The notes: generated by a model from the sequence alone, not told the origin. A stretch of 64,000 bases of DNA from Polyangiaceae bacterium (GCA_033763455.1 JANRKO010000006.1:352001-416000), one strand, 5' to 3'. Shown: positions 1 to 13,984, counted from the stretch's first letter. Translations and numbers: made by a program.

Positions 1-1092
1 GCAGTCTCCGTAGCTGACATCGAAGCTAAAGCCCGAAGCCGGCGGCGCCACGCCTCCAGCTCCGCCCGACGCGCTTCCGGCTCCGCCACCGAAGCCACCC
101 TGGAAGTATTGAGAGCACGAGCAGGTGGACGTACCGCTGAAGCCGTTCGGATAGCAGCTCAGGTAGAAGGTAGAGTTGCTACAGCTCAGGGTGGCGTCAC
201 AATATCCGGGAGAGTTCACGTTCACGCTACCAACGCAGCCCACGGGGGGTACGGGTACGGGATAGGGTGGAGGCATCGGCACACCGTACTGACAGCTGTA
301 GGCGTTCGAATCCCAGTACGAGCAGCGATTTTCTGTATCGTTATAGTCGCAGCGCTCCTGAAGTACGGAGGTGCGGCATTGCTTGCCTGCTTGTACGTAC
401 TGCTGGCACACGGGGGAATAGGAATTCACCTCTGAATAGCAGCCATTGACGCAGTCAAAGTAGCGACCATCTTGCGGTACCCCAGAACACTTCAAGGCGA
501 TGCTACAATAGTTCTCACACGCGCCCATCAGAGGTGGTGGAGGTGGTGGCGGCGGCGGCGGCGACGCGCAGCGCTCAGCATCGGACATGAGTTGCCCGCA
601 CTTGGCCTGTGCGTCCCCAAAGCTGCAACTGGTACTCGCAAGCACACTTTGGTAACAGTCGAGAGCCTGGATGCGAGAGTTGTAGCAGTCACTGTTCATC
701 GCCCCTTGATTTAAGTAGCTGTTGCAGTTCCCCGCACAAGTTGGGTCGCCTTGGCCGCACGACGAAAGCTGCCCGCAAAAGCGCTCACACGCCGTAATTG
801 GAGGCGGTGGAGGTGGTGGTGGAGGCGGTGGCGGTGGTGGAGGTGGTGGGAATATCGGCCCGACCCCGCCAGTGGGAGCAACGGGCGCTCCGCCAGCTGG
901 CGCACCACCGGACTTGGTGGGGCCTCCACCGGACGCTTTGCCACCAGTGCCGCCGGTGCCGCCAATCCCACCCGAAGACGGGTACGGGTAGGTGCCGTTG
1001 AAACCAACCAGGTCCCCACCGTCGCGCCCACCACATGCCACCAACCAACATGCCATACCCGCCAGAAGCGGCGCCTTAAGTCCAACTCGCAT
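1..1092 (-). CDS. Cys-rich, poly-Pro lipoprotein (3' end runs off the window start; not in the ORF track)
   Basis: Manual translation from ATG at 1092: MRVGLKAPLLAGMACWLVAC (lipobox LVAC), Gly-rich linker, ~17 Pro, two 10-Cys modules separated by poly-Pro; no stop codon before position 1. Confidence 0.85.
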   Translation of the reverse strand, partial: MRVGLKAPLLAGMACWLVACGGRDGGDLVGFNGTYPYPSSGGIGGTGGTGGKASGGGPTKSGGAPAGGAPVAPTGGVGPIFPPPPPPPPPPPPPPPPPITACERFCGQLSSCGQGDPTCAGNCNSYLNQGAMNSDCYNSRIQALDCYQSVLASTSCSFGDAQAKCGQLMSDAERCASPPPPPPPPPPLMGACENYCSIALKCSGVPQDGRYFDCVNGCYSEVNSYSPVCQQYVQAGKQCRTSVLQERCDYNDTENRCSYWDSNAYSCQYGVPMPPPYPVPVPPVGCVGSVNVNSPGYCDATLSCSNSTFYLSCYPNGFSGTSTCSCSQYFQGGFGGGAGSASGGAGGVAPPASGFSFDVSYGDC

Positions 1093-1310
1093 GAGCGAAG
1101 CCTAGCCTTCAAACCACCGCAGGTCCACCGCGCAAGGTGGGCCGATGCGGCACCGAATAGCTATTTTCTTCGAGGGTTGGCCCTATTTCTCACATCAAGA
1201 GGGCTGCTATAACTGAACGCAAAGCCCCCTGACACAAATTCGTTACACCCTCACCTTGACAGCAAACGCAGCGCTCCCTAGCTGCTATGTCGTCCTTTTG
1301 GGATTCTTGC

Positions 1311-1973
1311 ATGCCAACGACACCACCGCCCAGCCAGCACCCCATGGAACTTCAGCAAGAGGGGCTGACGGACGCCGAGCACCACAAGAAAATGGTTGAG
1401 CTTAAGAGTGCACAGGACGCACTCGTGAAGAGCAAGGAAATCGAGCGAGGGATCCTGCTGGTGAACACGGGGGATGGAAAGGGCAAATCCACAGCGGCCT
1501 TCGGCTTGGCGCTGCGTGCGGCTGGTGCTGGCCTGCGCGTGGGTGTGATTCAGTTTATCAAAGGAACTTGGAAAACGGGTGAAGCGGAAGCGTTCAAACG
1601 CTTCCCGGAGATCGAGCACGTGGTATCCGGCGAGGGCTTCACTTGGAACACGCAGGACCGCCAAAAGGATGTGGCTGCGGTTCGGCGGGGGTGGGAGCGA
1701 GCTAAAGAGATGATCGAAGCCAGCCGCGGTGATGAGCCAGCGTTCCATTTGTTGGTGCTAGATGAGCTTAATATCGCACTAGCCTTCAACTACATCGGGT
1801 TAGATGAAGTGTTGCCTGTGCTTAAGAATAAGCCAAAAATGCTGAACATTGCCGTTACTGGTCGCGATGCCAAGCCGGAATTGATTGCCCTGGCCGACAC
1901 GGTAACGGAGATGAAGTCCATTAAGCACGCGTTTGATGCTGGCATTGTGGCCCAGCGAGGCATCGAGTACTGA
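1311..1973 (+). CDS. cobO: cob(I)alamin adenosyltransferase (CobO/BtuR/CobA)
   Basis: VNTGDGKGKSTAAFGLALRA, IQFIKG, VLDELNIAL, TGR, ADTVTEM..KHAFDAG...GIEY motifs; start could be 1287, 1311 or 1344. Confidence 0.95.
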   Translation: MPTTPPPSQHPMELQQEGLTDAEHHKKMVELKSAQDALVKSKEIERGILLVNTGDGKGKSTAAFGLALRAAGAGLRVGVIQFIKGTWKTGEAEAFKRFPEIEHVVSGEGFTWNTQDRQKDVAAVRRGWERAKEMIEASRGDEPAFHLLVLDELNIALAFNYIGLDEVLPVLKNKPKMLNIAVTGRDAKPELIALADTVTEMKSIKHAFDAGIVAQRGIEY

Positions 1974-2037
1974 GGGCGCATCCAAGAGTGAGCGATGCAC
2001 GAGCGTGCTCTGGCGGCGGGCAGCGCGTTTGTACGGC

Positions 2038-2487
2038 TTAACCGTTAGGGAGTTTTGAGAAAAACTCGAACGCTACCTTTTCGAATTCTGGCGCTACCCG
2101 CTTAACCAACGCTTGGCCTCGCGCAGTAACTATAATTCGCCAGGCGCGTGCGTCACCGAGCGTAGGCCCGCGATCGAGCAAGCCTCGTAGTGAGAGGGCT
2201 GTTGCAATACGCGAGGTAGTTGCTTGATCGAGCCCGGCGTGTTCGGCAACAGCCCGCTGTTGGACAGCATCTTCTTTGGCCTCGGTGAGGCTCAATGTGG
2301 AAGCCAACACCAGGTATTGGGTGTGCGTTAGCTCAAAGGGCTTGAGCGTCGAATCAGCCATCCGTTGCCAACGCATCGCGTCGCGCCAGAGGCTGAAGCC
2401 ACGTTGGATGTTTTCTGGCTCTGGGGTCACCACTTCGAAATCACCGTTTGGATTGGGGACGACGGGACACACGCGGGCCTGAGGCAC
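2038..2487 (-). CDS. MarR-family transcriptional regulator
   Basis: LKPFELTHTQYLVL, winged helix (LDQATTSRIATALSLRGLL), DARAWRIIVTARG; start uncertain. Confidence 0.88.
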   Translation of the reverse strand: MPQARVCPVVPNPNGDFEVVTPEPENIQRGFSLWRDAMRWQRMADSTLKPFELTHTQYLVLASTLSLTEAKEDAVQQRAVAEHAGLDQATTSRIATALSLRGLLDRGPTLGDARAWRIIVTARGQALVKRVAPEFEKVAFEFFSKLPNG

Positions 2488-2676
2488 TTAGCATGACAAG
2501 CATCAGGAGTGCGAGGCGAAGGGGGTGGAGCGGCGTGCGAGGTACTTAGCATGACAAGCATCAGAAGTGCGGGGCGAAGGGGGTTCCCAGGGCTTGAGGT
2601 ACTTAGCATGACAAGCATCAGGAGTGCGGGGCGAAGGGGGTTCCCAGCCGGCTTGAGGTACTTAGCATGACAAGCA
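2481..2676. repeat. Tandem 57-59 bp repeat (4 cores ACTTAGCATGACAAGCA)
   Basis: Cores start at 2486, 2544, 2601, 2660; intervening sequences are near-identical. Confidence 0.95.
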
Positions 2677-2867
2677 CTGGCAGCGGGTCGAAAGAAGGCC
2701 GCAACCGTCCGGCTACACCAACGGGACGCCAACAGGCCAAGCGTGTGCGAGGTTCTCCGGGCGTGGCGCGTTGCACGCCCGATCGGGTGTCAGCGGATTC
2801 GTGGAGACAGCCAGGATGAAACAACGCCCAAGGCCCGGCCTAGGAGCCAATAAGTGCGCTGCAGTGC

Positions 2868-4334
2868 TTACTGCTGGGTGGCGATGGGCTTGGGGCCCAC
2901 CCAACGTTCCTGACGGCTGTAGGGGACCTCGTGGGCTTCGTCTTTGCTCACGGTTGATTTATCGAGCTGAATGTTCTTGGTCATGGTGATCATGAACACG
3001 GTGGAGCTGCCTTGGCCGCCTATCATTACGGACCAGCCGAGGAACATCATCCACATGCGGAACCAGCGTTGCCCGTATTTGGCCACGATGGCAGCTTCGT
3101 TCTTCTTCCAGTTTTCGTACCACTTGTGAATGGTAATCGAATAATGCACACCGCAGTTCTCGACTCGGTGAACCTCGAAACCGGCGCGCTCTGCCTGCGA
3201 AACCACGAAGCCGAGCGGACAACTCGCATCGGCACCGGGGAAGATGTACTTCGCCATGAAGAGGCCCCACACGAGGTCCTCATAGTGCCAAGGGCGGCGG
3301 AGCCCTGCGATCTGTAGATAGAAGATGCCGTCGTCTTCCAACATGCTTCGTACTTGGAGGAGGAACTGCTGAAAGTTCTTGATGCCAACGTGCTCGGCCA
3401 TTTCCAAGCAGGTGATCTTGTCGAACTTGGTAGCCGGTAGGTTGCGGTAGTCATCCACGATGACGCGCACGCGATCGGCCACGCCTGCTTTCCTGGCTCG
3501 TTCGTTGGCCCAATCGGCTTGCTCCTGTGCCAGGGTGATCCCGGTGCTGATCGAGCCGTGGTTCTTGGCTGCGTGAGTGATGAGTGGACCCCAGCCGCAG
3601 CCGATGTCCAAATGTCGATCACCCGGCTTCATCTGCACGTAGCGGCATACGGTTTCAAGCTTACGCTCTTGGGCTGTTTCCAGGGATTCGTTCGGATCCT
3701 GGAAGATACCGCTTGTGTACGTCATCGATTCGCCAAGGAACCAATTGTAGAAGTCATTGCCGCGATTGTAGACGTGCGCGATATCACTCTCGTCGCTCTT
3801 TACCGTGTGCGTCACATTCTGACCGAGGAACTCTCGAAAGTAGAATTTGACATCACCCCAGGTAAACGCGAAGCGAAACAGGCGGTTACGGCGCAGGAGC
3901 ACCTCATATACGTCCTGTTTGAAGTCTAGCTTTTCGGCCATGTACGCTTCGTAGAGGATCTCCATCGGGATCCGTTTTGATTGCCAGCGGGCAGCGTCAG
4001 CCGGATCACGCCAGGCAATGTACTTGCTGCAATCTTCAGCGGGCGCGCTGCTCTGGGAGTAGGAGCGATAAACAAGCCAGCCAAGAGGCAGCACGATTCC
4101 GAAAAGGGGGACAGCAACCCAAGCTAACGCTGCAGCCACCCAGCTACCGGTAAGCAGCCAAGCCAAACCCGCCACGGCCGTTGGGACCGCTAGGAGGACC
4201 AGGATATTTTGCTCAAGCAGCCAGAAGATGAAGGGCATGCCGTGCGTGCGCCCCTGTTCTCGGTGCTCAGAAGCCTTCTGGTGCGTGGGTCGTTCGGTCG
4301 CGTGCGGAGAGTTCAGTGCTGCAGAATCTGTCAT
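2868..4334 (-). CDS. CMAS-family SAM-dependent lipid methyltransferase, sphingolipid C9-methyltransferase-like, with N-terminal TM helices
   Basis: YNRGNDFYNWFLG, MTYTSG, LDIGCGWG, KITCLEMAEHVG, YEDLVWGLFMAKYIFPGADAS; two hydrophobic segments near the N-terminus; start uncertain (4334 or 4238). Confidence 0.88.
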   Translation of the reverse strand: MTDSAALNSPHATERPTHQKASEHREQGRTHGMPFIFWLLEQNILVLLAVPTAVAGLAWLLTGSWVAAALAWVAVPLFGIVLPLGWLVYRSYSQSSAPAEDCSKYIAWRDPADAARWQSKRIPMEILYEAYMAEKLDFKQDVYEVLLRRNRLFRFAFTWGDVKFYFREFLGQNVTHTVKSDESDIAHVYNRGNDFYNWFLGESMTYTSGIFQDPNESLETAQERKLETVCRYVQMKPGDRHLDIGCGWGPLITHAAKNHGSISTGITLAQEQADWANERARKAGVADRVRVIVDDYRNLPATKFDKITCLEMAEHVGIKNFQQFLLQVRSMLEDDGIFYLQIAGLRRPWHYEDLVWGLFMAKYIFPGADASCPLGFVVSQAERAGFEVHRVENCGVHYSITIHKWYENWKKNEAAIVAKYGQRWFRMWMMFLGWSVMIGGQGSSTVFMITMTKNIQLDKSTVSKDEAHEVPYSRQERWVGPKPIATQQ

Positions 4335-4463
4335 TTTTAGGCCTGGGGCGGCAGCGCAAGAGTGCGCCAAAACAATCCGCTCGGGGGCCCTTAGACGCCA
4401 AATCGTGCCAAAAGTCCACTCCATCCAGAAATCCCGGGGGAGCCGAGGCGGCCTAGCAAAGCC

Positions 4464-5384
4464 TTAGGTCGAATGATTCAGAACAAAATCGACCACGTGG
4501 GCATCGGGCACAAAGCCCAGCTCGTACGTCGGCACGCACTCCACCACCCGTTCCAACGTCTCCAGACACTCGCCCATCAAGGCCTTATCGTAGAAGGGGA
4601 CAAAACTCGTCGAGAGCAAGCGTGCAACGGCCAGAGAGCTCTCCATGCGGAAGGCCTGGTTCGTGTGGGTTTGTCGCAAGAAATAAAGCGCCGTAACGGG
4701 CACGCTCCCAGCTTCGCTGAAGGCGCCCTCCCCGTGCCAGGGGGTTCCGTGCATGATTACCTTGCCTTCGGAGAGGCGGAGCACGATGCGGTCGTCGCTC
4801 AAAATGCGCACATTCTTCGCGTTTTGCCAGATGCGGGACATGGTCGTCTTTCCGCCACCTGATTGGGCCGTGAATATGTAGCCGCGCCCATCTTCCGTGA
4901 TTAGGCCAGACGCGTGCAGCTCGATCCCTTGGCGGGAGCAAAGTAGATGTTCCAAGAGGAGCTCTCCAAGTGGGTATTCGAGGCCTGCAATCCGCTCCTT
5001 GTGCGGGAAGCGCCGCTCATCAAGCAGCACCTCGCCATACGTGAACGTGCGATCCACCCGAGCCACCTGGTAAGGCGCATGGCCGAAGGCCGGCGTATGG
5101 CAGGCGAACATCAAGCCCCCGGAAGCCTCCTTAAACAGCTTCCAGCTACCACCAGAATCGAAAAGCGGCACTTCTGAGGGCGGCTTTGGCATCTCAGAAA
5201 CGCGCCGCACCTCCAGCTGCAGATCTGCAGGACTTTGAGTTTGAAACGCCGAGAAGGCTCCGGGCATAACGATTTCGGCATGCTCGCCGTGTACAAAGCC
5301 AAGCGTAATACCGCCAATACGCAGGCCCACCGACGAATGAAGCCCGCTGTCCGTGTCGCCTGGTGTGCGCTCCCACCCGTCCAT
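4464..5384 (-). CDS. HPr-kinase-like P-loop protein of RiPP/PqqD cassettes
   Basis: LHASG..., Walker A-like SGGGKTT, ILSDDR, HGTPWHGE; GAGGGGAG RBS; directly downstream of the precursor peptide. Confidence 0.75.
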   Translation of the reverse strand: MDGWERTPGDTDSGLHSSVGLRIGGITLGFVHGEHAEIVMPGAFSAFQTQSPADLQLEVRRVSEMPKPPSEVPLFDSGGSWKLFKEASGGLMFACHTPAFGHAPYQVARVDRTFTYGEVLLDERRFPHKERIAGLEYPLGELLLEHLLCSRQGIELHASGLITEDGRGYIFTAQSGGGKTTMSRIWQNAKNVRILSDDRIVLRLSEGKVIMHGTPWHGEGAFSEAGSVPVTALYFLRQTHTNQAFRMESSLAVARLLSTSFVPFYDKALMGECLETLERVVECVPTYELGFVPDAHVVDFVLNHST

Positions 5385-5394
5385 CAGCTCCCCC

Positions 5395-5580
5395 TCAGCT
5401 CCCGAGTGACATGCAGCTACCAGTCGTGCAGTCGTCAGCGGCGGGCCCGCTGATGCCGACCATCTTACATGCTCCTAGCACGGCCTCCTCGGGCCGGAGC
5501 GGCACGGCGGTGACCTGAGGCGAAACGTAGCGCCGCTTGGGGCTCAGCTTTGCAGGCGTTGGGTTGCTTTCGTCGGTCAC
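5395..5580 (-). CDS. Putative RiPP precursor peptide (61 aa)
   Basis: GGAGG RBS before GTG at 5580; leader KRRYVSPQVTAVPLRPEEAVLGA; core CKMVGISGPAADDCTTGSCMSLGS; lies between the radical SAM and kinase-like genes. Confidence 0.85.
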   Translation of the reverse strand: MTDESNPTPAKLSPKRRYVSPQVTAVPLRPEEAVLGACKMVGISGPAADDCTTGSCMSLGS

Positions 5581-5616
5581 GGAACCCTCCAAAGGTACGT
5601 AAGCTCTGCCGCAAAC

Positions 5617-6849
5617 TCAAGTTCGCTGTACGACTGGCAGTGGCCGAGGGGCGCGAGGTTGGGTAACTGGCGTACAGGCCGCAAGCTTCAGAGGCTGCGC
5701 CCCGCCGAGCTTCTCCACTTTTGCGAGTAGATTTTCGTGCTCGGCTCCGCCCGGACAATACTCACATGGACCATGGGCACGGACGGGGTGCCCGATGGCA
5801 TGGGCGCGCAGGTGCGCAACTTCACACAGAAAAGCGACTGGCTCTTCCGCATCGCCGGATTCAAGCTCGCCGTTTGCTGGGCACATCCCACAGATATTCT
5901 TAAGGCCACATTTCGTGCACTTGGTCTCACGTGTGTGCTTGCGTTCACGTTTAGCGCGCAGGAAGGAAGTCCAGCCTTCTTTGAATTTCCCCGACTCCAG
6001 AAGCAGAGTCTCTTTGGTGGAGAGGACACACATCTCCAGGTTTCCGTAGGGATCTACCGCGAACGATCGCACGCCCGCCCCACAATGATACAACTTCTCC
6101 GGATCCTCGGTCTCGGCCGTGCTTCGGGCAAAATAGTCCCTCCAGGCTGCCACTCGAGCCGAGTCTGCCAGATCCATCTCCACCACTTGCTCTGGTTGGA
6201 TCCTCACGGCAAGGGGGCTTGAAGAACAATCGATGCGCGGGTTGATTAACGCATCGAACTTAAAAGGCACTCCCAGCTCCTCGGCCCACTTCCGCATGAG
6301 CTGAATTTCATGGCGATTGCGGGTAACAGCGACCGTCTTCAACTTGAGCGGCAACTTGCGTTCCAAGAGCAGATGAACGGCCTTCACACACCGCGCATGG
6401 GAGCCGGGCTTTCGCGTTAACGCCTCGTAAGACTCTCTGGTGTAGCCATACAGCGTGATCTCGATCGAAAAAGGGCGATACTCTGCGAGCACATCGGCAA
6501 TCTCTTCGTCAATCAGGATCCCGTTCGTAAACAGTGTGATGAGGAAGCCTTTGCCCTTGGCGTAGCGGTAGATATCGAGGAAATCTTTGCGTGCAAAGAT
6601 CTCTCCGCCTGTGAACAAGAGCCAGAGGGTTCCAGCGTCGGCGATTTCATCCAAGAGGCCAAAATACTGTTCGGTGGTCAGCTCGGTGTTCTTGGCCTGC
6701 TGGTCTCCCATCGGGAGATTGTTGTAACAGTGCTCGCAAGTGAGTGGACAACGCCGTGTCACCTCAATCGTGGCACTCAACGGAACGTGGGCCTGAGCGG
6801 CCGTGGTGATCGCTCCCTGGCTAAACGTCCCGTAGCTCGAAGTCTTCAT
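5617..6849 (-). CDS. Radical SAM/SPASM peptide maturase
   Basis: CPLTCEHC (CxxxCxxC), FTGGE, TNG; SPASM cysteines CGAG...DPYGNLEMC...CTKC..KNICGMC...C; start overlaps the PqqD stop (ATGA). Confidence 0.95.
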   Translation of the reverse strand: MKTSSYGTFSQGAITTAAQAHVPLSATIEVTRRCPLTCEHCYNNLPMGDQQAKNTELTTEQYFGLLDEIADAGTLWLLFTGGEIFARKDFLDIYRYAKGKGFLITLFTNGILIDEEIADVLAEYRPFSIEITLYGYTRESYEALTRKPGSHARCVKAVHLLLERKLPLKLKTVAVTRNRHEIQLMRKWAEELGVPFKFDALINPRIDCSSSPLAVRIQPEQVVEMDLADSARVAAWRDYFARSTAETEDPEKLYHCGAGVRSFAVDPYGNLEMCVLSTKETLLLESGKFKEGWTSFLRAKRERKHTRETKCTKCGLKNICGMCPANGELESGDAEEPVAFLCEVAHLRAHAIGHPVRAHGPCEYCPGGAEHENLLAKVEKLGGAQPLKLAACTPVTQPRAPRPLPVVQRT

Positions 6850-7169
6850 GGGCTTTCGTTGGCCACGGCCTGCACTAGCCCCACATCCGATAGTGTTGCG
6901 ATGAAGGTTGTCACATCAGTGCGGGCCTGTTCCGGGGAGAGCTCGTATTCGTCAAGTAGGGCTTGCACGAGGCTCTCCTCGGTTGCGCTTTGGGCTAACT
7001 TCGACCACAGCACGGACGCCGACTCGTTCAAGACGAATACGGAGGCGAGGTCTGCGATGTCACCCCGCACGGGCACGATGACGCTTTCCTCGCCCAATTT
7101 CCGAGTGACGGATTCCCCTCGCTGACTAAAAATACGGCTCCTCACAGCACATAAGAGTAGCTCACGCAC
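6846..7169 (-). CDS. PqqD family / RiPP recognition element (RRE)
   Basis: RKLGEESVIVPV...VFVLNESASVLWSKL...LVQALLDEYELSPEQARTDVTTFIATLSDVGLV, typical of PqqD. Confidence 0.92.
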   Translation of the reverse strand: MRELLLCAVRSRIFSQRGESVTRKLGEESVIVPVRGDIADLASVFVLNESASVLWSKLAQSATEESLVQALLDEYELSPEQARTDVTTFIATLSDVGLVQAVANESP

Positions 7170-7383
7170 GGGCAGCTACCAACCTGGAACCCACCATTGA
7201 GCTCATTACTATTCGCTACCGATCATCCTGGAAACTCCGTTCAGGCTGGGTATCGTGGTTGCCTCGCCCAGTTTCCGGTCATTTCTCGTCGCGCTAGTGG
7301 GAGCTCGACGCCTTTTGGGCCGCGTAGCATCGGGTGCCGTTCGCCGGTTCGGCCCGAAGAGTGCCACAAAATCGCCAGATTCC

Positions 7384-7824
7384 ATGGCTCTGCGCCCTTC
7401 CTTCGTCGAGGAGCTGCTGGGTAAGGGGATGCGTGTTCGGCTGCCGGCGATGGGTGGCAGCATGTTGCCGCTGATCGCTCCGGGCAGCGTCCTCACCATT
7501 GCCCCACTTAACGAAGCTCGTCCCAAAGAGGGAACCGTAGTGCTCTACCGCGACGGGCGTCGCATGTTTGCCCACCGGCTGCTAGCTCGTACCAGAGCGA
7601 GCATGCCTCCTGGAAGCAACTACGCATTCCGCGGAGACAACCTGGCTACCTACGACAGACCCAGCCCGGAGCATCGCATTCTGGGCATTGTCGAACTCGT
7701 GGAACCCCCGACCATCAGCTACCGCAGAGGACCTGGTGTGAGGCGAGCACTGCGCCAAGCAGCGCGCTTCTTCGCCAACCGGGATGCGAGCCGCCAAAGC
7801 GGCCGCAGCGGCCTGCACAAGTAA
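7384..7824 (+). CDS. S24/S26-family serine peptidase (candidate leader peptidase)
   Basis: GGSMLPLI catalytic Ser box, AHRLL, RGDN motifs; divergent from PqqD. Confidence 0.8.
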   Translation: MALRPSFVEELLGKGMRVRLPAMGGSMLPLIAPGSVLTIAPLNEARPKEGTVVLYRDGRRMFAHRLLARTRASMPPGSNYAFRGDNLATYDRPSPEHRILGIVELVEPPTISYRRGPGVRRALRQAARFFANRDASRQSGRSGLHK

Positions 7825-8720
7825 AGCAAGAACAAGCGCGAACGTCGGGTTTCTTGGTAGCGATGCTCCATCTTCCGGATGGAGGGAAAAGTACTGATGA
7901 ATATTAGCTTGAGCAGGGAGTTTCGGGCCACGAACCACCAAACTAGAAGCGACCGGCGGTATGCGTCCCCGTGGTGGGCTTCCTGCTCCGGCGGCCCTGG
8001 GAGCCAGCGTAACATGCTTCGCGCTCTCTCAGTGAGCGGCACAACCGGTTCACTCTTTAAAAGGCCACGGTCCTTTGCCAACTGCAAACAATAGGGAAAA
8101 ATGTCATGCGTACGGGTGGAGTTGATGAGCTGGATGAGGCGCGGAAGGTTGAGCTCCTCACGCCAAGCCTCGTGAGCACGGGCGAATTCCTCCAAGATCC
8201 TGAGCTCTAGCCCCAAGTGCTGGAGATAGTGGCTTGCTAGGTGGAGCAAGCAGAGCTCCTTGTTGAGTACTGAGATTTCGGTATCGCGAAGGCGCCAGGT
8301 TTGGCGATTCTCCCAAAGTATGGATTCTGGCACCCCAAGGTACAATGGGAACGCGTTCCAGTGGAGTTCCACAACGAACGGTGCTCCCCGGGGAGGAGTG
8401 CGAAACAACGGGTGTTGAAAATCGCTCTTCAGATCCATTTCGAGGGAGCGAAGGCGAGGAGCGTGGTAGCCAAGCTTGGCCAAGATCGACGCCGCGCGCG
8501 GAGCATCGGATGCGTGCACCAGAATGTCGTTATCGGCGATGCGGCGTGTTTCGATGCGGGTGCCCAACCGATCCAAGAGCGGCAATCCTTTAAGCACCAG
8601 CGCATCTATCTTCTCCTCCGCGAGGGCACGGAGTATGGAAAGCAGCTCCTCTTCTAGCAGCGTGTTGTACGCAAGCTTACGTATGTCTTCGACTGCCGAG
8701 GGGCTGGGGTTTGGCACCAA
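7719..8720 (-). CDS. Nucleotidyltransferase family protein (NTP_transf_5-like)
   Basis: ALVLKG, RRIADNDILV, VELHW, LLHLASH motifs. Confidence 0.85.
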   Translation of the reverse strand: MVPNPSPSAVEDIRKLAYNTLLEEELLSILRALAEEKIDALVLKGLPLLDRLGTRIETRRIADNDILVHASDAPRAASILAKLGYHAPRLRSLEMDLKSDFQHPLFRTPPRGAPFVVELHWNAFPLYLGVPESILWENRQTWRLRDTEISVLNKELCLLHLASHYLQHLGLELRILEEFARAHEAWREELNLPRLIQLINSTRTHDIFPYCLQLAKDRGLLKSEPVVPLTERARSMLRWLPGPPEQEAHHGDAYRRSLLVWWFVARNSLLKLIFISTFPSIRKMEHRYQETRRSRLFLLYLCRPLRPLWRLASRLAKKRAAWRSARLTPGPLR

Positions 8721-8779
8721 CCTAGGTATGCGACCGGCCCTGGCTCAAATAAAGGGCGAATCGCCCAAGTCTCCGCGCC

Positions 8780-9211
8780 TTAGTGCCCCAGGCGTTGGCT
8801 CAGCCAGGCAGAAAACTGGTGCGCGGGCAGCAATCCTTCTTGGCGAGCCGTTTCGCGACCCCCTTGGAATAGCAGAAAAGCTGGAATTCCTGAGATCCTG
8901 AACTTAGCGGACGGCCCTGGGTTTTCATCTGTGTTGAGCTTGAGCACGGCAACCTTACCCGCTTGTGCTCGTGCAACCTGCTCAAGCACTGGGGCTGCCA
9001 TCCGGCACGGACCGCACCAAGGCGCCCAAAAATCCACCAACACGGGCAGTGGCGACGCTTCAAGAGCCGCAAATAGCTCCCCCGTATTAACCGCCTGCGG
9101 CAACCCGGCCGTTTCTAGCGTTTGCTTGCAGCGGCCGCAAACGGGCGTCCCTTCACGACCTTCCGCGACGCGATTGAAGGCGCCGCACTTAGAACAACGA
9201 AAGGTTAACAT
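8780..9211 (-). CDS. trxC: Thioredoxin 2 with N-terminal zinc finger
   Basis: CSKCGAFNRV...CGRC zinc finger and DFWAPWCGPC active site. Confidence 0.92.
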   Translation of the reverse strand: MLTFRCSKCGAFNRVAEGREGTPVCGRCKQTLETAGLPQAVNTGELFAALEASPLPVLVDFWAPWCGPCRMAAPVLEQVARAQAGKVAVLKLNTDENPGPSAKFRISGIPAFLLFQGGRETARQEGLLPAHQFSAWLSQRLGH

Positions 9212-9410
9212 TAGGGGGAACGTAAACACGACGTAGTCCCCACGCAACTCTAGCCAGTGGGGCCGCGGCTTTCTTCGGCCTGAGGCCGCGGACTACGGGG
9301 AGGGAACGGTATTCTTACGTCTATCTGCTCCTTTCTCAGCCAGGCTAACGTTGTTTCCGGCGTCCGGGGTGCTTGTAGGCCCCAGGCCTAGGCCTGCTAT
9401 ACTCGCCCGC

Positions 9411-10424
9411 ATGTCGTTGTCCCGGATAAGGTCAAAGGCGACCTTCCCGGTTGTTGTTGGCGCTTTGCTCGTGCTTCTTCTGTTGGCGTCCGTGCTTTCG
9501 CTCTGGGTTGGGCACGGGGATCTCTCAGATGTTGCCCTACGAGCGGCCTTCTTAGAGCTTCGGGGGATGCGGGTTGCCGCCGCCTTTTTCGCTGGTGCCG
9601 CGCTGGCGGTAGGTGGGGTGATGGTGCAGGGGCTGTTTCGGAATCCGCTCGCAAGCCCAGAGATATTGGGGACAACTGCGGGTGCCGCACTGGGCGGTAA
9701 GCTCGCGCTGTTCTTTTACGAAACCGTGCTTGCCGGGGCACTGGTTTGGATTTCGCCACTGACGTTGGTCCCATTGGGGTCGCTTTTGGGGGCACTTCTG
9801 GCGCTTTCGTTGCTGCTCGTGATCGTCCGCGTCCGCGACGATGTGGTGGTGTTGTTGCTGGTGGGCTTCTTGCTCTCCTCTTTGTTTCTGGCTCTTGGTG
9901 GGTTTGTAATGGCGTTAGCTCAGGAGCGCTGGGAGCTTGCCCGAGCGTTGATCGGATTTTCCTGGGGTGATTTAAGCAGTGTGGGGGCAAAGCAGCTGTG
10001 GATGGCCGCGCCGCTCGTGGTGATCGGAAGTGGCGCGTGTTGGTTCTGGGGTAAACCTCTCGACATTTTGCTCTCCGGAGACGAAGAGGCGCGCTCCTTG
10101 GGCGTGAACGTGAAGCAAACGCGCTTCTGGTGCATCGTCTGGACCTCCGTGTTAACGTCGGCAGCTGTTGGGCTAGGAGGGAACGTGGGGTTTGTGGGGT
10201 TGGTGGTGCCGCATGCACTACGGCCGTTTGTGGGCGTGCGGCATCGGCGGTTGATGTTCTGTTCGGTTATTCTGGGGGGCGCATTCTTAGTGCTGTGCGA
10301 TGTCGTGGCTCGCGTGCTGCCCACTCGAAGCGAGGTGCCGCTCGGCGTTGTTACGGGAATTGTTGGCGCTCCCATGTTCTTGTTGTTGCTCAGTCGTACG
10401 CGGCGCGAGGTGCAGCTTGGCTAG
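9411..10424 (+). CDS. FecCD/BtuC-family ABC permease (cobalamin/iron chelate)
   Basis: QGLFRNPLASPEILG, GDEEARSLGV, GFVGLVVPH, EVPLGVVT. Confidence 0.93.
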   Translation: MSLSRIRSKATFPVVVGALLVLLLLASVLSLWVGHGDLSDVALRAAFLELRGMRVAAAFFAGAALAVGGVMVQGLFRNPLASPEILGTTAGAALGGKLALFFYETVLAGALVWISPLTLVPLGSLLGALLALSLLLVIVRVRDDVVVLLLVGFLLSSLFLALGGFVMALAQERWELARALIGFSWGDLSSVGAKQLWMAAPLVVIGSGACWFWGKPLDILLSGDEEARSLGVNVKQTRFWCIVWTSVLTSAAVGLGGNVGFVGLVVPHALRPFVGVRHRRLMFCSVILGGAFLVLCDVVARVLPTRSEVPLGVVTGIVGAPMFLLLLSRTRREVQLG

Positions 10425-11379
10425 GCTATTGGCTCCCTTGAATGCGGCGGGCGTCGCTCTCGCCTTGGCTTTGAGTGCCGGGGCAAGTTTGCGATTTTCC
10501 TCGGTGAACCAAGAAAGTACGCCTGGAAGTAAGCGTACTCCGGCGGCGCTCTTGGTGAACACTCCAGAGGGCCCTGCGCTTCGGGACGCCACTGGTGCGG
10601 TCGTAGTCGTGAAAAATTACCAACGCATTGTCGGCGGGAGCCTCGTGGCGGATCGCTTGTTGCTTGAACTGGCCGAACCAGCTCGCGTCCTTGCCTCGCT
10701 TGATTCCTCGCGTGCCACAGCTTGGGGCTTTCGCATTACGGCGCCGCACACGCTCTCCGAGCCGACCAACGCGGAACGGCTGCTAGCACTTAAGCCCGAT
10801 CTGGTGATCTTGAGTGATCTCGGAGAGGCTTCAAAAGTTCAGCGGTTGCGTGAGCTCGGGTTGGCAGTGTTTGTGCTCGGTCCCATGCGCGGACGGGCAA
10901 CGTTACTTCCTCAAATACAGGCAATCTCGATGCTTCTTGGTGCGCCCGCACGCGGTGAGGCGCTCAGTTCAGCTTTTCGAGCGCGAAGCGAACGCGTAGC
11001 GGTGAGTGTGCCGAAGGGCAAACGCCTGCGAGCGCTGTATGTTGGAGCTTACGGGGATAAAATGTTCGGCGGAACGCGTGGAACGAGTTACCACGACGTG
11101 CTCGAAATGGCTGGCCTCGTTGATGCAGCGGAATCTAAGTTCGAAGGCTGGCCACAATACAGCCCCGAGCAGGTCTTGAGCCTCGATCCTGATGTCTTGG
11201 TCACAACCACCACGTCTGCCAAGAATCTGTGCGAGCAAACAGGGCTTCAGGCGTTACGGGCATGCCGCGCGGAAAATGGTGTCGTAGCCCTAAATGAAGG
11301 GCTTATGAGCGATCCTGGGTTGGCGATGCTTGATGCCGCCGAGGCAGTGTTCGAAGCCGTGTACGGCACGCGCCATTGA
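10417..11379 (+). CDS. ABC transporter substrate-binding protein (BtuF/FepB-like)
   Basis: ERLLALKPDLVI, WPQYSPEQVLSLDPDVLV; TTG start overlaps the permease stop. Confidence 0.85.
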   Translation: MARLLAPLNAAGVALALALSAGASLRFSSVNQESTPGSKRTPAALLVNTPEGPALRDATGAVVVVKNYQRIVGGSLVADRLLLELAEPARVLASLDSSRATAWGFRITAPHTLSEPTNAERLLALKPDLVILSDLGEASKVQRLRELGLAVFVLGPMRGRATLLPQIQAISMLLGAPARGEALSSAFRARSERVAVSVPKGKRLRALYVGAYGDKMFGGTRGTSYHDVLEMAGLVDAAESKFEGWPQYSPEQVLSLDPDVLVTTTTSAKNLCEQTGLQALRACRAENGVVALNEGLMSDPGLAMLDAAEAVFEAVYGTRH

Positions 11380-11411
11380 AGACAAGCTATGTGCTGGGGG
11401 CGGCCCAGCTA

Positions 11412-12197
11412 TCACCCATCTCGGTGAAGTTGGAAGCTGAGGCCAGCGCCGACTTCTAAATCTACCCCATAGCCTTCAAAAATAGGCCCGCGAGTGATCA
11501 CTTCGCGCGAAGGACCTTGGGCAATCACACGCCCGGCATTTAAGAGGATGCTCCGGTTGGTGTAACGCAGGGCTTCCTCCAGGTGATGGAGTGCCAGGAT
11601 GATCAGGTGCCCCTTCTGGCTCAGGCCTTGCAGCAACTCCAAAAAGCTCAGTGCAAAACGCACGTCCAAAGCCGCAGTTGGTTCGTCCAGTAAGATCACT
11701 TGCGCACCTGTTGCCAGGGCACGCGCCAGAAGAACGCGCCGTTGTTCGCCTCCAGAAAGTTCATTGAAGGGGCGGTCGGCAAGGCTAGTGGCCTCTACTG
11801 CTTCGAGTGCTTCTGCCACACACGTCCGATCAGCAGCGGACATCCCAAAAAGGCCCGTGTGTCGGCTGTAGCGAGCGAGCGCCACGACATCCCACACCGG
11901 CATAGGTGCCATGAGTAACGACTTTTGCGGGACGTAGGCGAGCTTCTGGGCGCGCTCTTTTGCAGATACTGTTTTTAGGTTCACACCGAACAGTGTTACG
12001 GTGCCGGTGTAGTCTATTAACCCGCAAAGGGCGCGCAGAAGGGTCGTCTTGCCCGCGCCATTTGCGCCAAGCAGCGAGATAACTTCACCGCGTTCGGCGG
12101 TAAATGAGACCTCCCGGACCACGTCTCGCCCGCCCATCTTCACACCGAGGCAGTGAGCTTCAAGGGCAGGGGAGGGCATGGGCGGATGCCATAGCAT
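11412..12197 (-). CDS. ABC ATPase (BtuD/FecE-like)
   Basis: GANGAGKTT, LSGGEQRRVLLARALA, LLDEPT. Confidence 0.93.
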   Translation of the reverse strand: MLWHPPMPSPALEAHCLGVKMGGRDVVREVSFTAERGEVISLLGANGAGKTTLLRALCGLIDYTGTVTLFGVNLKTVSAKERAQKLAYVPQKSLLMAPMPVWDVVALARYSRHTGLFGMSAADRTCVAEALEAVEATSLADRPFNELSGGEQRRVLLARALATGAQVILLDEPTAALDVRFALSFLELLQGLSQKGHLIILALHHLEEALRYTNRSILLNAGRVIAQGPSREVITRGPIFEGYGVDLEVGAGLSFQLHRDG

Positions 12198-12248
12198 CTA
12201 CGCGCCGCCATCGCGACCCGGTTGTAACGCACACTCTGCAGGCCGCGT

Positions 12249-13469
12249 TCAGTGTTGCTGCGCCGTCACCGGAGACAGCGGATCGCACGCCTCGAGAGAC
12301 TCATCGAACTCCTGCTCGATGGCAGTAAGACCAGAAAGTGCGTCGGCAACGGAGCTGGCTTTTTCTCCGGGCTTGGGGAAATGGGCCACCAACACTGGCT
12401 CTCTCACGCCGGCAAGCTCGGTGCCTTTCACCGGTAGGTGCCCTTGCGCCACGAGCTTATCGTACAGGAGGCGTCCACGCTCGCGTGCTATGGGGCTGGC
12501 GAAGCGGACGTGAAAGTGGTTGTCGTGGCCCGGCGCGTGCTTCACGGCAGGATTCGGATAGCGCCCTTCGCCTTCGAACATTTGCTTGAGCCAAAGGGGA
12601 TCTTCGCCGATGGAGGCTGCGTAGTCGCGAAACCATGTTTGAAGTTCGCGGTCTAAAAGGACGTAATCGATCGGGGTTTGGGTGAGGAAAGCCTTCAAGA
12701 GGGCCCAACTCCGCGGGTAGTCAATCTCATTGCGGGTCGGTGGTTTGAACCAAACTGAGCCCTGCGTGCGGTAGAAGTAAACATCCACGTCGCGTCCGCT
12801 GCGATGGCTCTTGTGAGGAGGAGCATAGCCACCACCTTCAGGGCTAATTGAGCCGATCATAACCGGTGGAGAATGCGGAAATTGCTCCTGAACCGTGGCA
12901 ATCGCGCGAGTGAGCCCCAGAAGAGTCTCTTCGGTGCCGAAGCGATGTTGCGGAACGGTTACCACCCATCGTGGATCCTTTTTGAGCGCAACGCCGTTGA
13001 TCAAAAAGCCAACATTGGGATGCCCTACGCTGATGGCGCCAATCGAACGCTGTGCCTCTTCGCTGTAGACTGAAAGCTTGAGCTTCTCTGGTTTCGGAAC
13101 GGCGGCTGCTAGGGACGGAGCATGAGGTTTGCCTGGTGCCCGTTTCGGCAGCGAGCGAGGCCTGACGCTTTGCTTGGTCTTGGGCGGACGAGGCCTGACG
13201 CTTTGCTTGGTTTTGGGAGTAGAAGTGCCCCCTGCCTTGCTGTGCTCCACTTTGGCTTTGTCGGCTGACTCCTGTTCTGTCGACCGACTTGTCTTAGGTG
13301 GTGCCGGCTGCGAGTGAATCGCCTTTGCCGTGGTTGTGGCAGGCCAAGCGATGTTGGCAAAGAGCCCCAGCAAAATAGGCGCGAAGAAGCGTGCCGCAGG
13401 GCTCGGGTGCCGGGCACCGGTTATGAACTGCTTCGTGAACTTGCACTGCGTGAAAATGGCTTTCAACAC
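12249..13469 (-). CDS. Penicillin-insensitive murein endopeptidase (MepA-like)
   Basis: HKSHRSGRDVD and HDNHFHVR zinc motifs; Lys/Pro-rich linker; start uncertain (ORF extends to 13604). Confidence 0.8.
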   Translation of the reverse strand: MLKAIFTQCKFTKQFITGARHPSPAARFFAPILLGLFANIAWPATTTAKAIHSQPAPPKTSRSTEQESADKAKVEHSKAGGTSTPKTKQSVRPRPPKTKQSVRPRSLPKRAPGKPHAPSLAAAVPKPEKLKLSVYSEEAQRSIGAISVGHPNVGFLINGVALKKDPRWVVTVPQHRFGTEETLLGLTRAIATVQEQFPHSPPVMIGSISPEGGGYAPPHKSHRSGRDVDVYFYRTQGSVWFKPPTRNEIDYPRSWALLKAFLTQTPIDYVLLDRELQTWFRDYAASIGEDPLWLKQMFEGEGRYPNPAVKHAPGHDNHFHVRFASPIARERGRLLYDKLVAQGHLPVKGTELAGVREPVLVAHFPKPGEKASSVADALSGLTAIEQEFDESLEACDPLSPVTAQQH

Positions 13470-13528
13470 AGCTACATCGATAGCAAGCGAGCCGTGCGCC
13501 GGCCAAAATTTACGACTCTGCCCCGGAG

Positions 13529-13948
13529 CTAGCCCGCAAGAAGTGCGGCCAACTCTGCTCGCAGGCGAGGCGCTTGATCCGGATCGAGGCTCTTGGCTGG
13601 CCAACCCACCCCGAGGCCTTGCTTTTCATCGGGTTTGGGAATGATGTGGAAGTGAACGTGAGGCACCGCTTGATGTGCTTGGGCGCCGTTGTTCTGGAGT
13701 ACATTGAAAGCTTGCACTCCGGTTACCTTCTGAACTGCACGGCAGATGCGCGGCAAAACGCGGCCAAGCGCGGCGGCGGACTCATCGGAGAGCGCATCTA
13801 AGGTAACGGCTGGCTCTTTCGGGACCACCAAGGTGTGTCCGGGCGCTACCGGGTTGATGTCGAGGAAGGCGAAGACGAGCGCGTCTTCGTAGACTTTATG
13901 TGAGGGGATATCTCCGCGAATAATGCGTGTGAAGAGAGTCTCAGCCAT
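13529..13948 (-). CDS. HIT family nucleotide-binding protein
   Basis: AFLDINP..PGHTLVVPK, QAVPHVHFHIIP histidine triad. Confidence 0.95.
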   Translation of the reverse strand: MAETLFTRIIRGDIPSHKVYEDALVFAFLDINPVAPGHTLVVPKEPAVTLDALSDESAAALGRVLPRICRAVQKVTGVQAFNVLQNNGAQAHQAVPHVHFHIIPKPDEKQGLGVGWPAKSLDPDQAPRLRAELAALLAG

Positions 13949-13984
13949 GTTCGTCTCCAGTTGCTTACAGTAGATAGCATTCGG

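Follow-up and report, generated by a model that had tools for sequence, protein, structure and literature searches.

The locus described here, in a 64,000-nucleotide stretch of a Polyangiaceae contig (hereafter the window), raises the question of what is made by an operon that joins a radical SAM (rSAM)/SPASM enzyme to an HPr-kinase (HprK)-like protein. A sequence-only reading had proposed a hybrid RiPP cluster in which the rSAM/SPASM enzyme works with lasso-type tailoring enzymes. We report that the cassette is real and widespread, and that cross-linking, phosphorylation and trimming of a small three-Cys peptide are its most likely function, the rSAM enzyme standing beside machinery that had been characterised from lasso-peptide and linear-phosphopeptide pathways only. 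The hybrid idea was right but can be given a better comparison: among characterised systems, the cassette lies closest to the linear polyphosphorylated peptide (LPP) pathway of Bacillota, encoded by lppA-K-B-S-D-N clusters (Popov et al., Nat Commun 2026, PMC13381572; this and the other papers are cited from the portions of their text that were available), rather than the lasso pathway. The text below establishes the gene families, their catalytic motifs, their synteny and how the precursor is conserved; every chemical step is one that we infer.

Table 1. Genes and precursor segments of the cassette, in window coordinates
Feature	Position	Strand	Size and remarks
HprK-like P-loop peptide kinase	4464..5384	(-)	306 aa
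Precursor peptide gene	5395..5580	(-)	61 aa; GTG start; coordinates include the stop codon
Precursor, leader	~5473-5580	(-)	
Precursor, predicted core (xCK...C...CxxxGS)	~5398-5472	(-)	
Radical SAM/SPASM peptide maturase	5617..6849	(-)	410 aa
Discrete PqqD-type RiPP recognition element (RRE)	6846..7169	(-)	107 aa
Soluble S26B-type (archaeal/SipW-like) Ser/His/Asp peptidase, predicted leader peptidase	7255..7824	(+)	189 aa
PF14907 (NTP_transf_5) nucleotidyltransferase, accessory	7719..8720	(-)	333 aa

The PqqD, rSAM/SPASM, precursor and HprK-like kinase genes form a single tight minus-strand operon (Table 1). ORF calls and Pfam/NCBIfam profile searches returned the six gene positions and family assignments of the sequence-only reading, and its operon structure is likewise found in the DNA: the PqqD and rSAM genes share an ATGA overlap, a Shine-Dalgarno sequence (GGAGGG, 5585-5590) stands 4 nt ahead of the precursor GTG, and GGGGGAG precedes the kinase ATG. 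All NCBIfam matches stay under the curated cut-offs. The peptidase gene is divergent from the PqqD operon here and co-directional, after the kinase gene, in most other loci; the 3' end of the nucleotidyltransferase gene overlaps it convergently by 106 bp, as also happens in loci L001 and L002. Promoter and terminator sites were no more numerous in 4000-9400 than in shuffled sequences, and an Rfam scan of window positions 1-14000 at the gathering threshold gave 0 matches; one terminator-like hairpin lies directly 3' of trxC, before the nucleotidyltransferase gene. The cluster holds no exporter gene, and the ORFs of positions 1-14000 include no counterpart of the MsbA-like LppD. ABC genes at 9351-12197 resemble a FecCD/BtuCDF-type importer, judging from their ORF sequences alone.

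Queries with the window's proteins on rSAM-anchored loci found the four-gene core, syntenically arranged, in 75-76 of 80 loci (the best 80 of 398 related loci), which is far beyond chance: PqqD in 76 (counted by tblastn) and the precursor and kinase in 75 each, with gene order and strand kept across phyla (Acidobacteriota, Binatia, Nitrospirota and Myxococcota). It is patchily distributed: 4 of 151 genomes carry it in the window's own order, and 6 of 121 do so in an acidobacterial order; given the latter count we rejected a housekeeping role in Acidobacteriota. The sequence-only reading had expected kinase, peptidase and nucleotidyltransferase to accompany homologous rSAM/precursor pairs in other genomes. 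The outcome is mixed: the kinase accompanies them at the count just given, the peptidase is commonly linked (49 of 70 assessable loci), and the nucleotidyltransferase is linked in only 9 of the same best 80. Peptidase loci were taken as the union (51) of those found by an S24 HMM (34) and by tblastn (43); in the other 21 of the 70 assessable loci, checked by ORF layout, no peptidase was found within ~6 kb.

The precursor belongs to a family of 959 clusters, and none of the 120 relatives listed bears a functional name or Pfam domain. Across 45 sequences Y18, P21, L28, E32-L35, C38, K39, C51 and C56 never vary, and at least 90% keep G60 and S61. All 74 distinct leaders have Tyr at -19 and Pro at -16, and 71 of them have YxxPx[LVIM]; the leader then reads LRPEEAVLG-xCK. 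All 71 distinct cores begin with xCK, 68 contain exactly three Cys, and 69 end in Gly-Ser (the others being one GT and one AS). Between the fixed Cys the core is hypervariable and Gly/Ser/Thr-rich; Asp makes up 0.6% of its residues and Glu is absent, the family has no Ser at core position 3, and the C-terminal Ser is the sole conserved hydroxyl residue.

In the pathway that we propose, the PqqD-type RRE very probably binds the invariant leader motif YxxPx(L/V/I), which is the motif by which RREs bind lasso and LPP leaders (PMC10368454; PMC13381572). The protein matches PF05402 (E = 2.7e-15), and by profile comparison against the PDB its family lies nearest to lasso and LPP RREs (lasso TbiB1, 3.3e-13; LppB, 9x8z, 5.2e-10; PbaB1, 9x90, 2.4e-9), with PqqD itself behind them at only 5e-4. 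A predicted complex of PqqD protein and precursor scored 0.49 (best of 3 controls, 0.03), with runs agreeing in at least 92% of contacts and a partner pLDDT of at least 52. Of 157 solved complexes, 116 reach the mark it passed, as do 2 of 215 mismatched pairs; at 0.60 or under it is reached by only 18 of the 157 plus both mismatches that passed. The prediction weakly supports binding, and since like complexes have been solved (9x8z, 5v1v) the pass may be memory.

The RRE would hand the peptide to the rSAM/SPASM enzyme, which would modify the core at its three invariant Cys; sacti-/ranthipeptide-like Cys thioether links are the likeliest outcome, an assignment that we hold tentatively, at a little short of even odds. 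The protein matches Radical_SAM (PF04055, E = 6.9e-20), and the Pfam SPASM model gave no match to it at E<=0.01. The seven-Cys SPASM pattern runs CX9-15GX4C ... CX2CX5CX2-3C ... C, and the enzyme has it as C256-X12-G-X4-C274, C311-X2-C314-X5-C320-X2-C323 and C342, together with the CX3CX2C motif (C34, C38, C41); these two patterns, by which we judged membership of the rSAM/SPASM maturases, are invariant in 35 sequences. Homology fails to fix the chemistry, because NCBIfam scores fall far under every cut-off (best AhbD, 104 bits against 500, and MftC, 98 bits against 265) and because the near folds include the non-thioether enzymes PqqE, SuiB, anSME and the epimerase EpeE, besides SkfB and CteB (5why, 5wgg). 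By sequence, SkfB (top, 5.5e-11) and PqqE are the PDB matches.

The HprK-like kinase would next phosphorylate Ser once or several times, with the near-invariant C-terminal Ser a reasonably probable site. This residue is favoured because Gly-Ser ends nearly every core (69/71); as a precedent, the HprK homologues of lasso pathways add phosphate to the C-terminal Ser of the linear precursor (PMC8498205). The analogy with the two newest characterised relatives speaks against it: BsfK, which is stimulated by its RRE, and LppK use Ser3 of the core (PMC10368454; PMC13381572), a residue that cassette cores lack. The kinase's NCBIfam matches are ScmC (TIGR04249, E = 7e-7) and HprK_rel_A (E = 1e-3), both under cut-off. 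Its relation to known kinases was seen by fold search, phmmer against the PDB giving only a marginal PEPCK match (E = 0.54): the AF2 model (pLDDT 91.3) matches PEPCK (Foldseek E = 6e-8) and the HprK/P structures 1knx, 1ko7 and 1kkl (2e-5 to 6e-5). Invariant in 38 homologues are H157, S175-G176-x-G178-K179, T181, S196-D197 and R199. The lasso kinase motif H...GxxGxGK[ST]...DD (in BsfK H148-G163-G166-G168-K169-S170-D186-D187; PMC10368454) is found, by motif rather than by alignment with BsfK or LppK, as H157, G176, G178, K179, T180/T181 and D197-D198; position K-6 is Ala in the window and Gly in at least 90% of the family.

Leader removal is likely the work of the soluble Ser/His/Asp S26B peptidase, assisted by the RRE as for LppS, an RRE-dependent peptidase (triad S29/H68/D93) that cleaves unphosphorylated precursor inefficiently (PMC13381572); the cut may lie near the VLG-xCK junction, a placement that we offer with some reserve. 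The sequence-only reading had the family right, and the gene is more than a flanking one: its product is a RiPP leader peptidase of an established type. Its sole NCBIfam match is TIGR02228, archaeal-type signal peptidase I (E = 2.9e-4; homologues 4e-10 to 9e-7), PF00717 matches occur among its homologues, and G67, S69, M70, H107, R108, G127, D128 and G144 are invariant in 26 of them, the His standing where bacterial SPase and LexA carry Lys. In many lineages the leader peptidase and a membrane anchor are followed, in one fusion, by a PorU/gingipain-like domain, and a giant secreted protease of PorU-like type goes with many of the loci. Finally, the nucleotidyltransferase (PF14907, E = 1e-26) might, where present, decorate the phosphate, a step that we regard as doubtful; a nucleotidyltransferase puts hexoses on the corresponding lasso phosphate (PMC8498205), and in the available account of the LPP study deletion of LppN had no effect (PMC13381572). 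K44-G45, R59, D63-x-D65, H120 and H164 are invariant in 8 cassette-adjacent homologues. Catalytic motifs are intact in this protein, the kinase, the peptidase and the rSAM enzyme.

The LPP pathway comprises an RRE, an HprK-like kinase, a SipW-like leader peptidase and, as a core gene, an NTP transferase (PMC13381572). The cassette resembles it in its discrete RRE, for whose profile LppB is the second-best PDB match, its YxxPx(V/L) leader, its HprK-like kinase, its want of a macrolactam cyclase, its soluble archaeal/SipW-type leader peptidase (S69, H107 and D128) and its NTP transferase, although the term PF14907 is absent from the main text of the LPP paper. Unlike the LPP pathway, it adds an rSAM/SPASM gene translationally coupled to the RRE gene and a three-Cys core, whereas the LPP product is linear; it has no LppD; beyond YxxPxV/L its leader reads LRPEEAVLG against VLxHQxIxFET (LPP motif YxxPxVLxHQxIxFETxxS, phospho-acceptor Ser3); its only conserved Ser is C-terminal; and it occurs in Acidobacteriota, Myxococcota, Binatia and Nitrospirota, whereas LPP is restricted to Bacillota according to the available text. 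The terms radical SAM, rSAM, SPASM, thioether, Acidobacteri* and Myxococc* are absent from that paper's main text (PMC13381572).

Phosphorylated and phosphoglycosylated lasso peptides (paeninodin PadeK, pseudomycoidin PsmK/PsmN, BsfK) share an HprK-like kinase acting on the linear precursor, at the C-terminal Ser in the paeninodin type, a nucleotidyltransferase that adds to the phosphate, and a YxxPxL leader read by a PqqD-type RRE (PMC8498205, PMC10368454, as far as available). Their Asn-synthetase-like cyclase and B2 protease, noted as missing by the sequence-only reading, are missing from the window's entire contig, which has no Transglut_core3 or Asn_synthase match: the genome's sole PF13471 match is on contig C47, and none of its 7 PF00733 matches is on the window's contig (C6). 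The core nearly lacks the Asp/Glu that a lasso macrolactam uses at position 7-9 for its isopeptide bond, and the cassette has a predicted serine peptidase for leader removal and an rSAM enzyme. A separate lasso-like locus lies on another contig of the same genome. The likeness to SynChlorMet that had also been suggested proved real and distant. That cassette, with the HPr-rel-A and GeoRSP systems, likewise has an HprK-like protein, a PqqD relative and rSAM/SPASM enzymes, and ScmC is the kinase's best NCBIfam match, yet scores are far under cut-off throughout (ScmC TIGR04249, 28.8/125 bits; ScmD TIGR04248, 25.6/100; ScmE TIGR04250, 70.3/400; ScmF TIGR04251, 49.2/400), and there is one rSAM gene where SynChlorMet has two. 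SynChlorMet is to our knowledge itself uncharacterised, and our literature search found no paper on it. Sacti-/ranthipeptide maturases (SkfB, CteB, AlbA, PapB) share the SPASM/twitch rSAM fold, RRE-guided recognition and a Cys-bearing core; the cassette differs in having its RRE as a separate protein rather than an N-terminal domain, in rSAM scores of 53-74 bits against NCBIfam cut-offs of 340-850, and in having a kinase, an S26B peptidase and a nucleotidyltransferase. A literature search on HprK/HPr kinase with radical SAM and RiPP, PqqD or nucleotidyltransferase found nothing on the cassette.

We thus arrive at an RRE-dependent RiPP operon in which an rSAM/SPASM maturase is joined to LPP/phosphorylated-lasso machinery, and give this reading, with its steps as proposed, a probability of about 0.5. 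The operon would stand equally if the rSAM/SPASM enzyme performed other chemistry at or near Cys: epimerisation, C-C or C-N cross-links (which the invariant Lys beside Cys1 could join), anSME-type Cys oxidation or MftC-type C-terminal tailoring. Its nearest families (AhbD, NirJ, MftC, PqqE) and folds (PqqE, SkfB, SuiB, anSME, EpeE) are mixed, its 35 homologues share further invariant Cys (C154, C208, C362, C365), and most family members, though not the window's, end in a GCGxCGxH tail. Three invariant Cys in a hypervariable Gly/Ser/Thr-rich core are nevertheless the pattern of a Cys-donor thioether RiPP, and neither the 71 cores nor the 45-sequence alignment has a conserved aromatic residue for a streptide- or darobactin-like link; we consider such other chemistry rather unlikely. 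The kinase could instead be activating, the terminal Ser phosphate being eliminated or displaced, so that a C-terminal ring forms through the Cys five residues upstream (CxxxGS) and the product is free of phosphate. Exactly five residues follow the last Cys in 65 of 71 cores, the other spacings varying, and in class III/IV lanthipeptides Ser phosphorylation precedes elimination; but no lyase-like gene was found in the cassette, and the characterised HprK-like RiPP kinases, in the available text of their papers, all leave the phosphate on (PMC8498205, PMC10368454, PMC13381572), which makes this very unlikely.

A sacrificial role for the peptide, in the manner of PqqA or MftA, with a small redox cofactor or a metal-binding compound made from it, is most improbable. 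There is a single precursor gene per genome and no exporter, the top rSAM scores are to cofactor-type enzymes, and the leader is extremely conserved across phyla; yet the cassette is patchy in both orders sampled, the core is hypervariable between fixed Cys, the machinery is that of leader-cleaved peptides (as available in PMC13381572), and many loci are tied to the PorU-like protease. That the nucleotidyltransferase and, in this genome, the divergent peptidase are chance neighbours without a pathway role strikes us as somewhat unlikely. For the peptidase, the 49/70 linkage and the invariant triad argue strongly against chance. The nucleotidyltransferase is transcribed apart from the core operon, is rarely linked (9 of the best 80 of 398 loci) and belongs to a subfamily common in cassette-free genomes: in the acidobacterial order it occurs in 45 of 121 genomes (unpublished genome G233 among the 45), 39 of them among the 115 without the cassette. 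All 6 cassette genomes of that order hold it, however; the nucleotidyltransferase gene adjoins the cassette in no fewer than three layouts (among Polyangiales, Pyrinomonadaceae and other lineages); PF14907 occurs elsewhere in 5 of 5 genomes checked (best match per genome 1e-48 to 1e-66 with a model from cassette-adjacent copies, and a sixth, 1e-33, on another contig of one of them); and the LPP pathway has an NTP transferase among its core genes (PMC13381572). In a bolder form of the preferred reading, and one that we think quite unlikely, the triply Cys-cross-linked peptide would represent a new RiPP class and end up in a ribosomal peptide-glycan conjugate rather than as a free antibiotic, its (poly)phosphorylated C-terminal Ser serving as a handle to sugars or a cell-surface polymer through the PF14907 transferase and the PorU/gingipain-like 'sortase' domain.

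The first characterisation of a kinase, a SipW-like peptidase and an NTP transferase as RRE-guided machinery dates from 2026 and, in the text available, describes that machinery as confined to Bacillota and to linear peptides (PMC13381572). In the cassette the same machinery is combined with a radical-SAM enzyme, across four or more further phyla and mostly in uncultured bacteria of soil and sediment. Confirmation of the product would establish a new RiPP family, both cross-linked and phosphorylated, and would supply well-defined substrates (leader Y/P, three Cys, terminal Ser) for learning how one RRE serves three or four enzymes; it would also raise the question why such peptides adjoin polysaccharide genes and genes for giant surface proteases.

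Six genes were called within positions 4464-8720 of the window (see the table of features), and the tight operon that had been read from the sequence alone is confirmed: an ATGA overlap joins the PqqD and radical SAM (rSAM) genes, and ribosome-binding-like sequences precede both the precursor gene (GGAGGG at 5590-5585, 4 nt ahead of its GTG) and the kinase gene (GGGGGAG before its ATG). Because of this GGAGGG, the original 61-aa precursor call is more plausible than a 65-aa ORF starting at TTG. The assigned families also held, with Pfam scan matches of PqqD to PF05402 (E 2.7e-15), of the rSAM enzyme to Radical_SAM PF04055 (6.9e-20) and of the nucleotidyltransferase to NTP_transf_5 PF14907 (1e-26), and an S26-type assignment of the peptidase through its sole NCBIfam match, the archaeal-type signal peptidase I model TIGR02228 (2.9e-4). 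At 7719-7824 the convergent ORFs of the peptidase and the nucleotidyltransferase share 106 bp, an arrangement kept at the related loci L001 and L002.

Cassette genes, flanking genes, and genes of a lasso-like locus on contig C47 of the same genome (coordinates of the window, or of L085, a stretch of C47)
Feature	Coordinates	Strand	Remark
PF14907 nucleotidyltransferase	8720-7719	-	set off from PqqD by divergent gap
PqqD	7169-6846	-	first of four-gene run in transcription order
rSAM	6849-5617	-	directly after PqqD
Precursor peptide gene, 61 aa	5580-5395	-	between rSAM and kinase
HprK-like protein	5384-4464	-	last of run
S24/S26-type peptidase	7255-7824	+	divergent from PqqD
CFA-synthase-like methyltransferase	2868-4424		flanking gene
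trxC	8780-9247		flanking gene
MarR regulator	2038-2487		flanking gene
PqqD	L085 6690-6998		C47 lasso-like locus
Transglut_core3 B2-like protease	L085 6982-7434		C47 lasso-like locus
HprK_rel_B-like protein	L085 7447-8379		C47 lasso-like locus
Asn-synthase-like protein, 592 aa	L085 8372-10150		C47 lasso-like locus

Outside Polyangiales the three flanking genes are no part of the system. Between the MarR and CFA-synthase-like genes lies a 57-bp tandem repeat (3.5 copies, 87% matches, 2476-2676), and an open-ended minus-strand ORF at 1-1092 encodes a lipoprotein-like product with repeated Cys-rich modules spaced by long poly-Pro runs.

We report this cassette as an uncharacterised variant, bearing an rSAM gene, of the linear polyphosphorylated peptide (LPP) and phospho-lasso kind of pathway. 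Popov et al. (2026, PMC13381572) describe LPP clusters as restricted to Bacillota. Besides a precursor with a YxxPxV leader, these clusters encode an RRE (LppB), an HprK-like protein (LppK), a SipW-like leader peptidase of the Ser/His/Asp type (LppS), an exporter (LppD) and an NTP transferase (LppN). Ser3 receives between one and four phosphates from LppK, LppS depends on LppB and cuts unphosphorylated precursor inefficiently, and deletion of LppN has no visible effect. Since LPP clusters encode the same component types, four of the six genes at 4464-8720 correspond to the LPP set; the window cassette differs in having an rSAM/SPASM enzyme and a three-Cys core, and in being without an exporter. 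The main text of that paper has no mention of radical SAM, SPASM, thioether, Acidobacteria or Myxococcota, and our literature search found no other publication on the cassette. The sequence-only reading had proposed a lasso-like hybrid making a thioether-crosslinked peptide with a phosphorylated, possibly further decorated terminal Ser. This stands in part: the component machinery is there, but LPP is a better likeness than lasso alone. The mechanism that we propose rests on the homologies of the enzymes to LPP and lasso systems and on the conservation pattern of the precursor.

Seventy-six precursor peptides gave 71 distinct leader-end-plus-core sequences, in which LRPEEAVLG is exact in 63, xCK opens the core in all 71, and the number of Cys in the core is exactly three in 68. 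Of the 71 cores, 64 are 24-27 residues long, 65 have exactly five residues after the last Cys and 69 have a Gly-Ser terminus (the exceptions being one GT and one AS). Gly, Ser, Thr, Cys, Ala and Pro are abundant, Asp makes up 0.6% and Glu is absent. Of 74 distinct full-length leaders, all have Y(-19) and P(-16) and 71 contain YxxPx[LVIM]; in lasso leaders, YxxPxL is the motif that the RRE binds (PMC10368454). The precursor has no NCBIfam match and a single copy in the window's genome. A profile search returned 959 clusters at E<=0.001, and the 120 listed are all unnamed or annotated "hypothetical protein", none with a Pfam domain.

The profile of the RRE family matches best lasso TbiB1 (3.3e-13), LppB (9x8z, 5.2e-10), PbaB1 (9x90, 2.4e-9) and TfuB1, and PqqD itself ranks behind these lasso and LPP RREs (5e-4). 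The predicted complex of PqqD with the precursor scored 0.49, the best of three controls reaching 0.03; it lends weak support to RRE binding and may echo memorised solved RRE-leader complexes.

By its sequence, the rSAM enzyme is a member of no named family: it matches 67 NCBIfam models, every one far under cut-off, among them AhbD (104 bits), NirJ2 (99), MftC (98), PqqE (86), StsB (73.5), AlbA (71.7), ScmE (70.3) and PapB (53.3). Invariant Cys in the homologue alignment comprise CX3CX2C, the complete seven-Cys SPASM pattern and four more. The best PDB sequence matches are SkfB (5.5e-11) and PqqE (6.5e-11), and the model (pLDDT 79.2) matches the folds of PqqE, SkfB, MoaA, SuiB, TigE, CteB, anSME and EpeE. 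At least 90% of homologues close with a GCGxCGxH tail; the window's protein (C-terminus at 5617-5700) stops before it.

In lasso pathways, HprK homologues act on linear precursors, phosphorylating the C-terminal Ser, at times repeatedly, and in pseudomycoidin a nucleotidyltransferase puts hexoses on that phosphate (PMC8498205). A suggested likeness to SynChlorMet cassettes survives as a distant one: ScmC is the best NCBIfam match of the kinase (E 7e-7; 28.8 bits, with the cut-off at 125; HprK_rel_A 1e-3). Invariant in 38 kinase homologues are H157, S175, G176, G178, K179, T181, S196, D197, R199 and a TPWHG block, which fit, with one-residue offsets and by motif comparison rather than direct alignment, the H...GxxGxGKS...DD motif whose importance for the lasso kinase BsfK was shown by mutagenesis (PMC10368454). 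The AF2 model (pLDDT 91.3) matches ATP-PEPCK over both domains (E 6e-8) and HPr kinase/phosphatase folds (1knx 2.3e-5, also 1ko7 and 1kkl). Across 26 peptidase sequences, G67, S69, M70, H107, R108, G127, D128 and G144 do not vary. The peptidase carries His at the position of the LexA/bacterial SPase Lys, and is therefore an S26B (SipW/archaeal) Ser/His/Asp enzyme, one that lacks a membrane anchor. K44-G45, R59, D63-x-D65, H120 and H164 are invariant in eight cassette-adjacent nucleotidyltransferases, the Polyangiales copies being ~60 N-terminal residues shorter than the others.

With each GTDB species represented by one genome, a pattern scan gave 398 stretches encoding an rSAM relative, and the best 80 were kept: two Polyangiales MAGs (77% identity), the remainder from Acidobacteriota, Binatia, Nitrospirota and one Myxococcales MAG (53-60%). 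In these 80, tblastn with the window proteins found PqqD in 76, the precursor and the kinase in 75 each, the nucleotidyltransferase in three, CFA synthase in two and the peptidase in 43; with local HMMs the peptidase reached 51, both methods combined, and the nucleotidyltransferase nine (five of the nine confirmed by Pfam, among 14 loci scanned). Where the kinase and at least 1.2 kb downstream were present (70 loci), the peptidase was found in 49; the other 21 have a four-gene form, the operon ending at the kinase. Co-occurrence with rSAM/precursor pairs, expected of all three enzymes in the sequence-only reading, is seen for the kinase, mostly for the peptidase, and rarely for the nucleotidyltransferase.

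The nucleotidyltransferase gene is placed in three ways: upstream and co-directional (Polyangiales), upstream and divergent, or directly after the kinase. In one acidobacterial order its subfamily occurs, unlinked, in 6/6 cassette genomes, and also in 39/115 others (these 45 genomes include G233, which is unpublished), and it is thus plausibly shared with other systems. PF14907 was found elsewhere in 5/5 acidobacterial genomes without an adjacent copy, and the window's genome has a second such gene on contig C87. At L054 (8531-10272) the post-kinase gene is a mere 168-aa fragment with an IS (rve integrase) gene ~200 bp downstream, suggesting disruption by insertion.

Other neighbours recur. 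At least eight of the 80 loci (L019:8365-12174, L023, L024, L037, L040, L045, L057, L063) fuse the S26B peptidase, via a hydrophobic signal-anchor-like segment, to a ~1250-1500-aa protein ending in Peptidase_C25 (T9SS sortase PorU model NF033707, 253 bits, where the cut-off is 420). At 22/80 loci there is a C25-like gene within ~6 kb, and L002, which with one other locus is closest to the window (both 77%), is among them; the window has no linked one, and two giant C25 proteins are encoded ~290 kb away. Terriglobales-type loci (L011, L017, L019, L030, L039) carry a secreted PF04185 phosphoesterase with Big_7 just upstream of PqqD (two copies in L030), often with a Ser/Thr protein kinase beyond; the phosphoesterase could reflect lineage synteny or be a phosphatase counterpart of the cassette kinase.

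A Bryobacteraceae MAG carries a further, divergent cassette (L021:9-3819) immediately upstream of its main one. This encodes an S26B peptidase, an HprK-like protein (ScmC E 2e-9), PqqD, an rSAM enzyme scoring best to AhbD, NirJ2, MftC and GeoRSP, another PqqD and another peptidase, so that the set of components makes up a wider superfamily. The lasso-like locus on C47, which has polysaccharide genes and a true AsnB on its flanks, means that the window's genome carries two RRE systems with possibly similar leaders, a situation studied by Popov et al. By kinase profile, the cassette occurs in 4/151 sampled genomes of the window's order, 0/23 of its family (the window's genome aside) and 6/121 of one acidobacterial order. 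It is thus an accessory system with a patchy distribution, like that reported for LPP and paeninodins.
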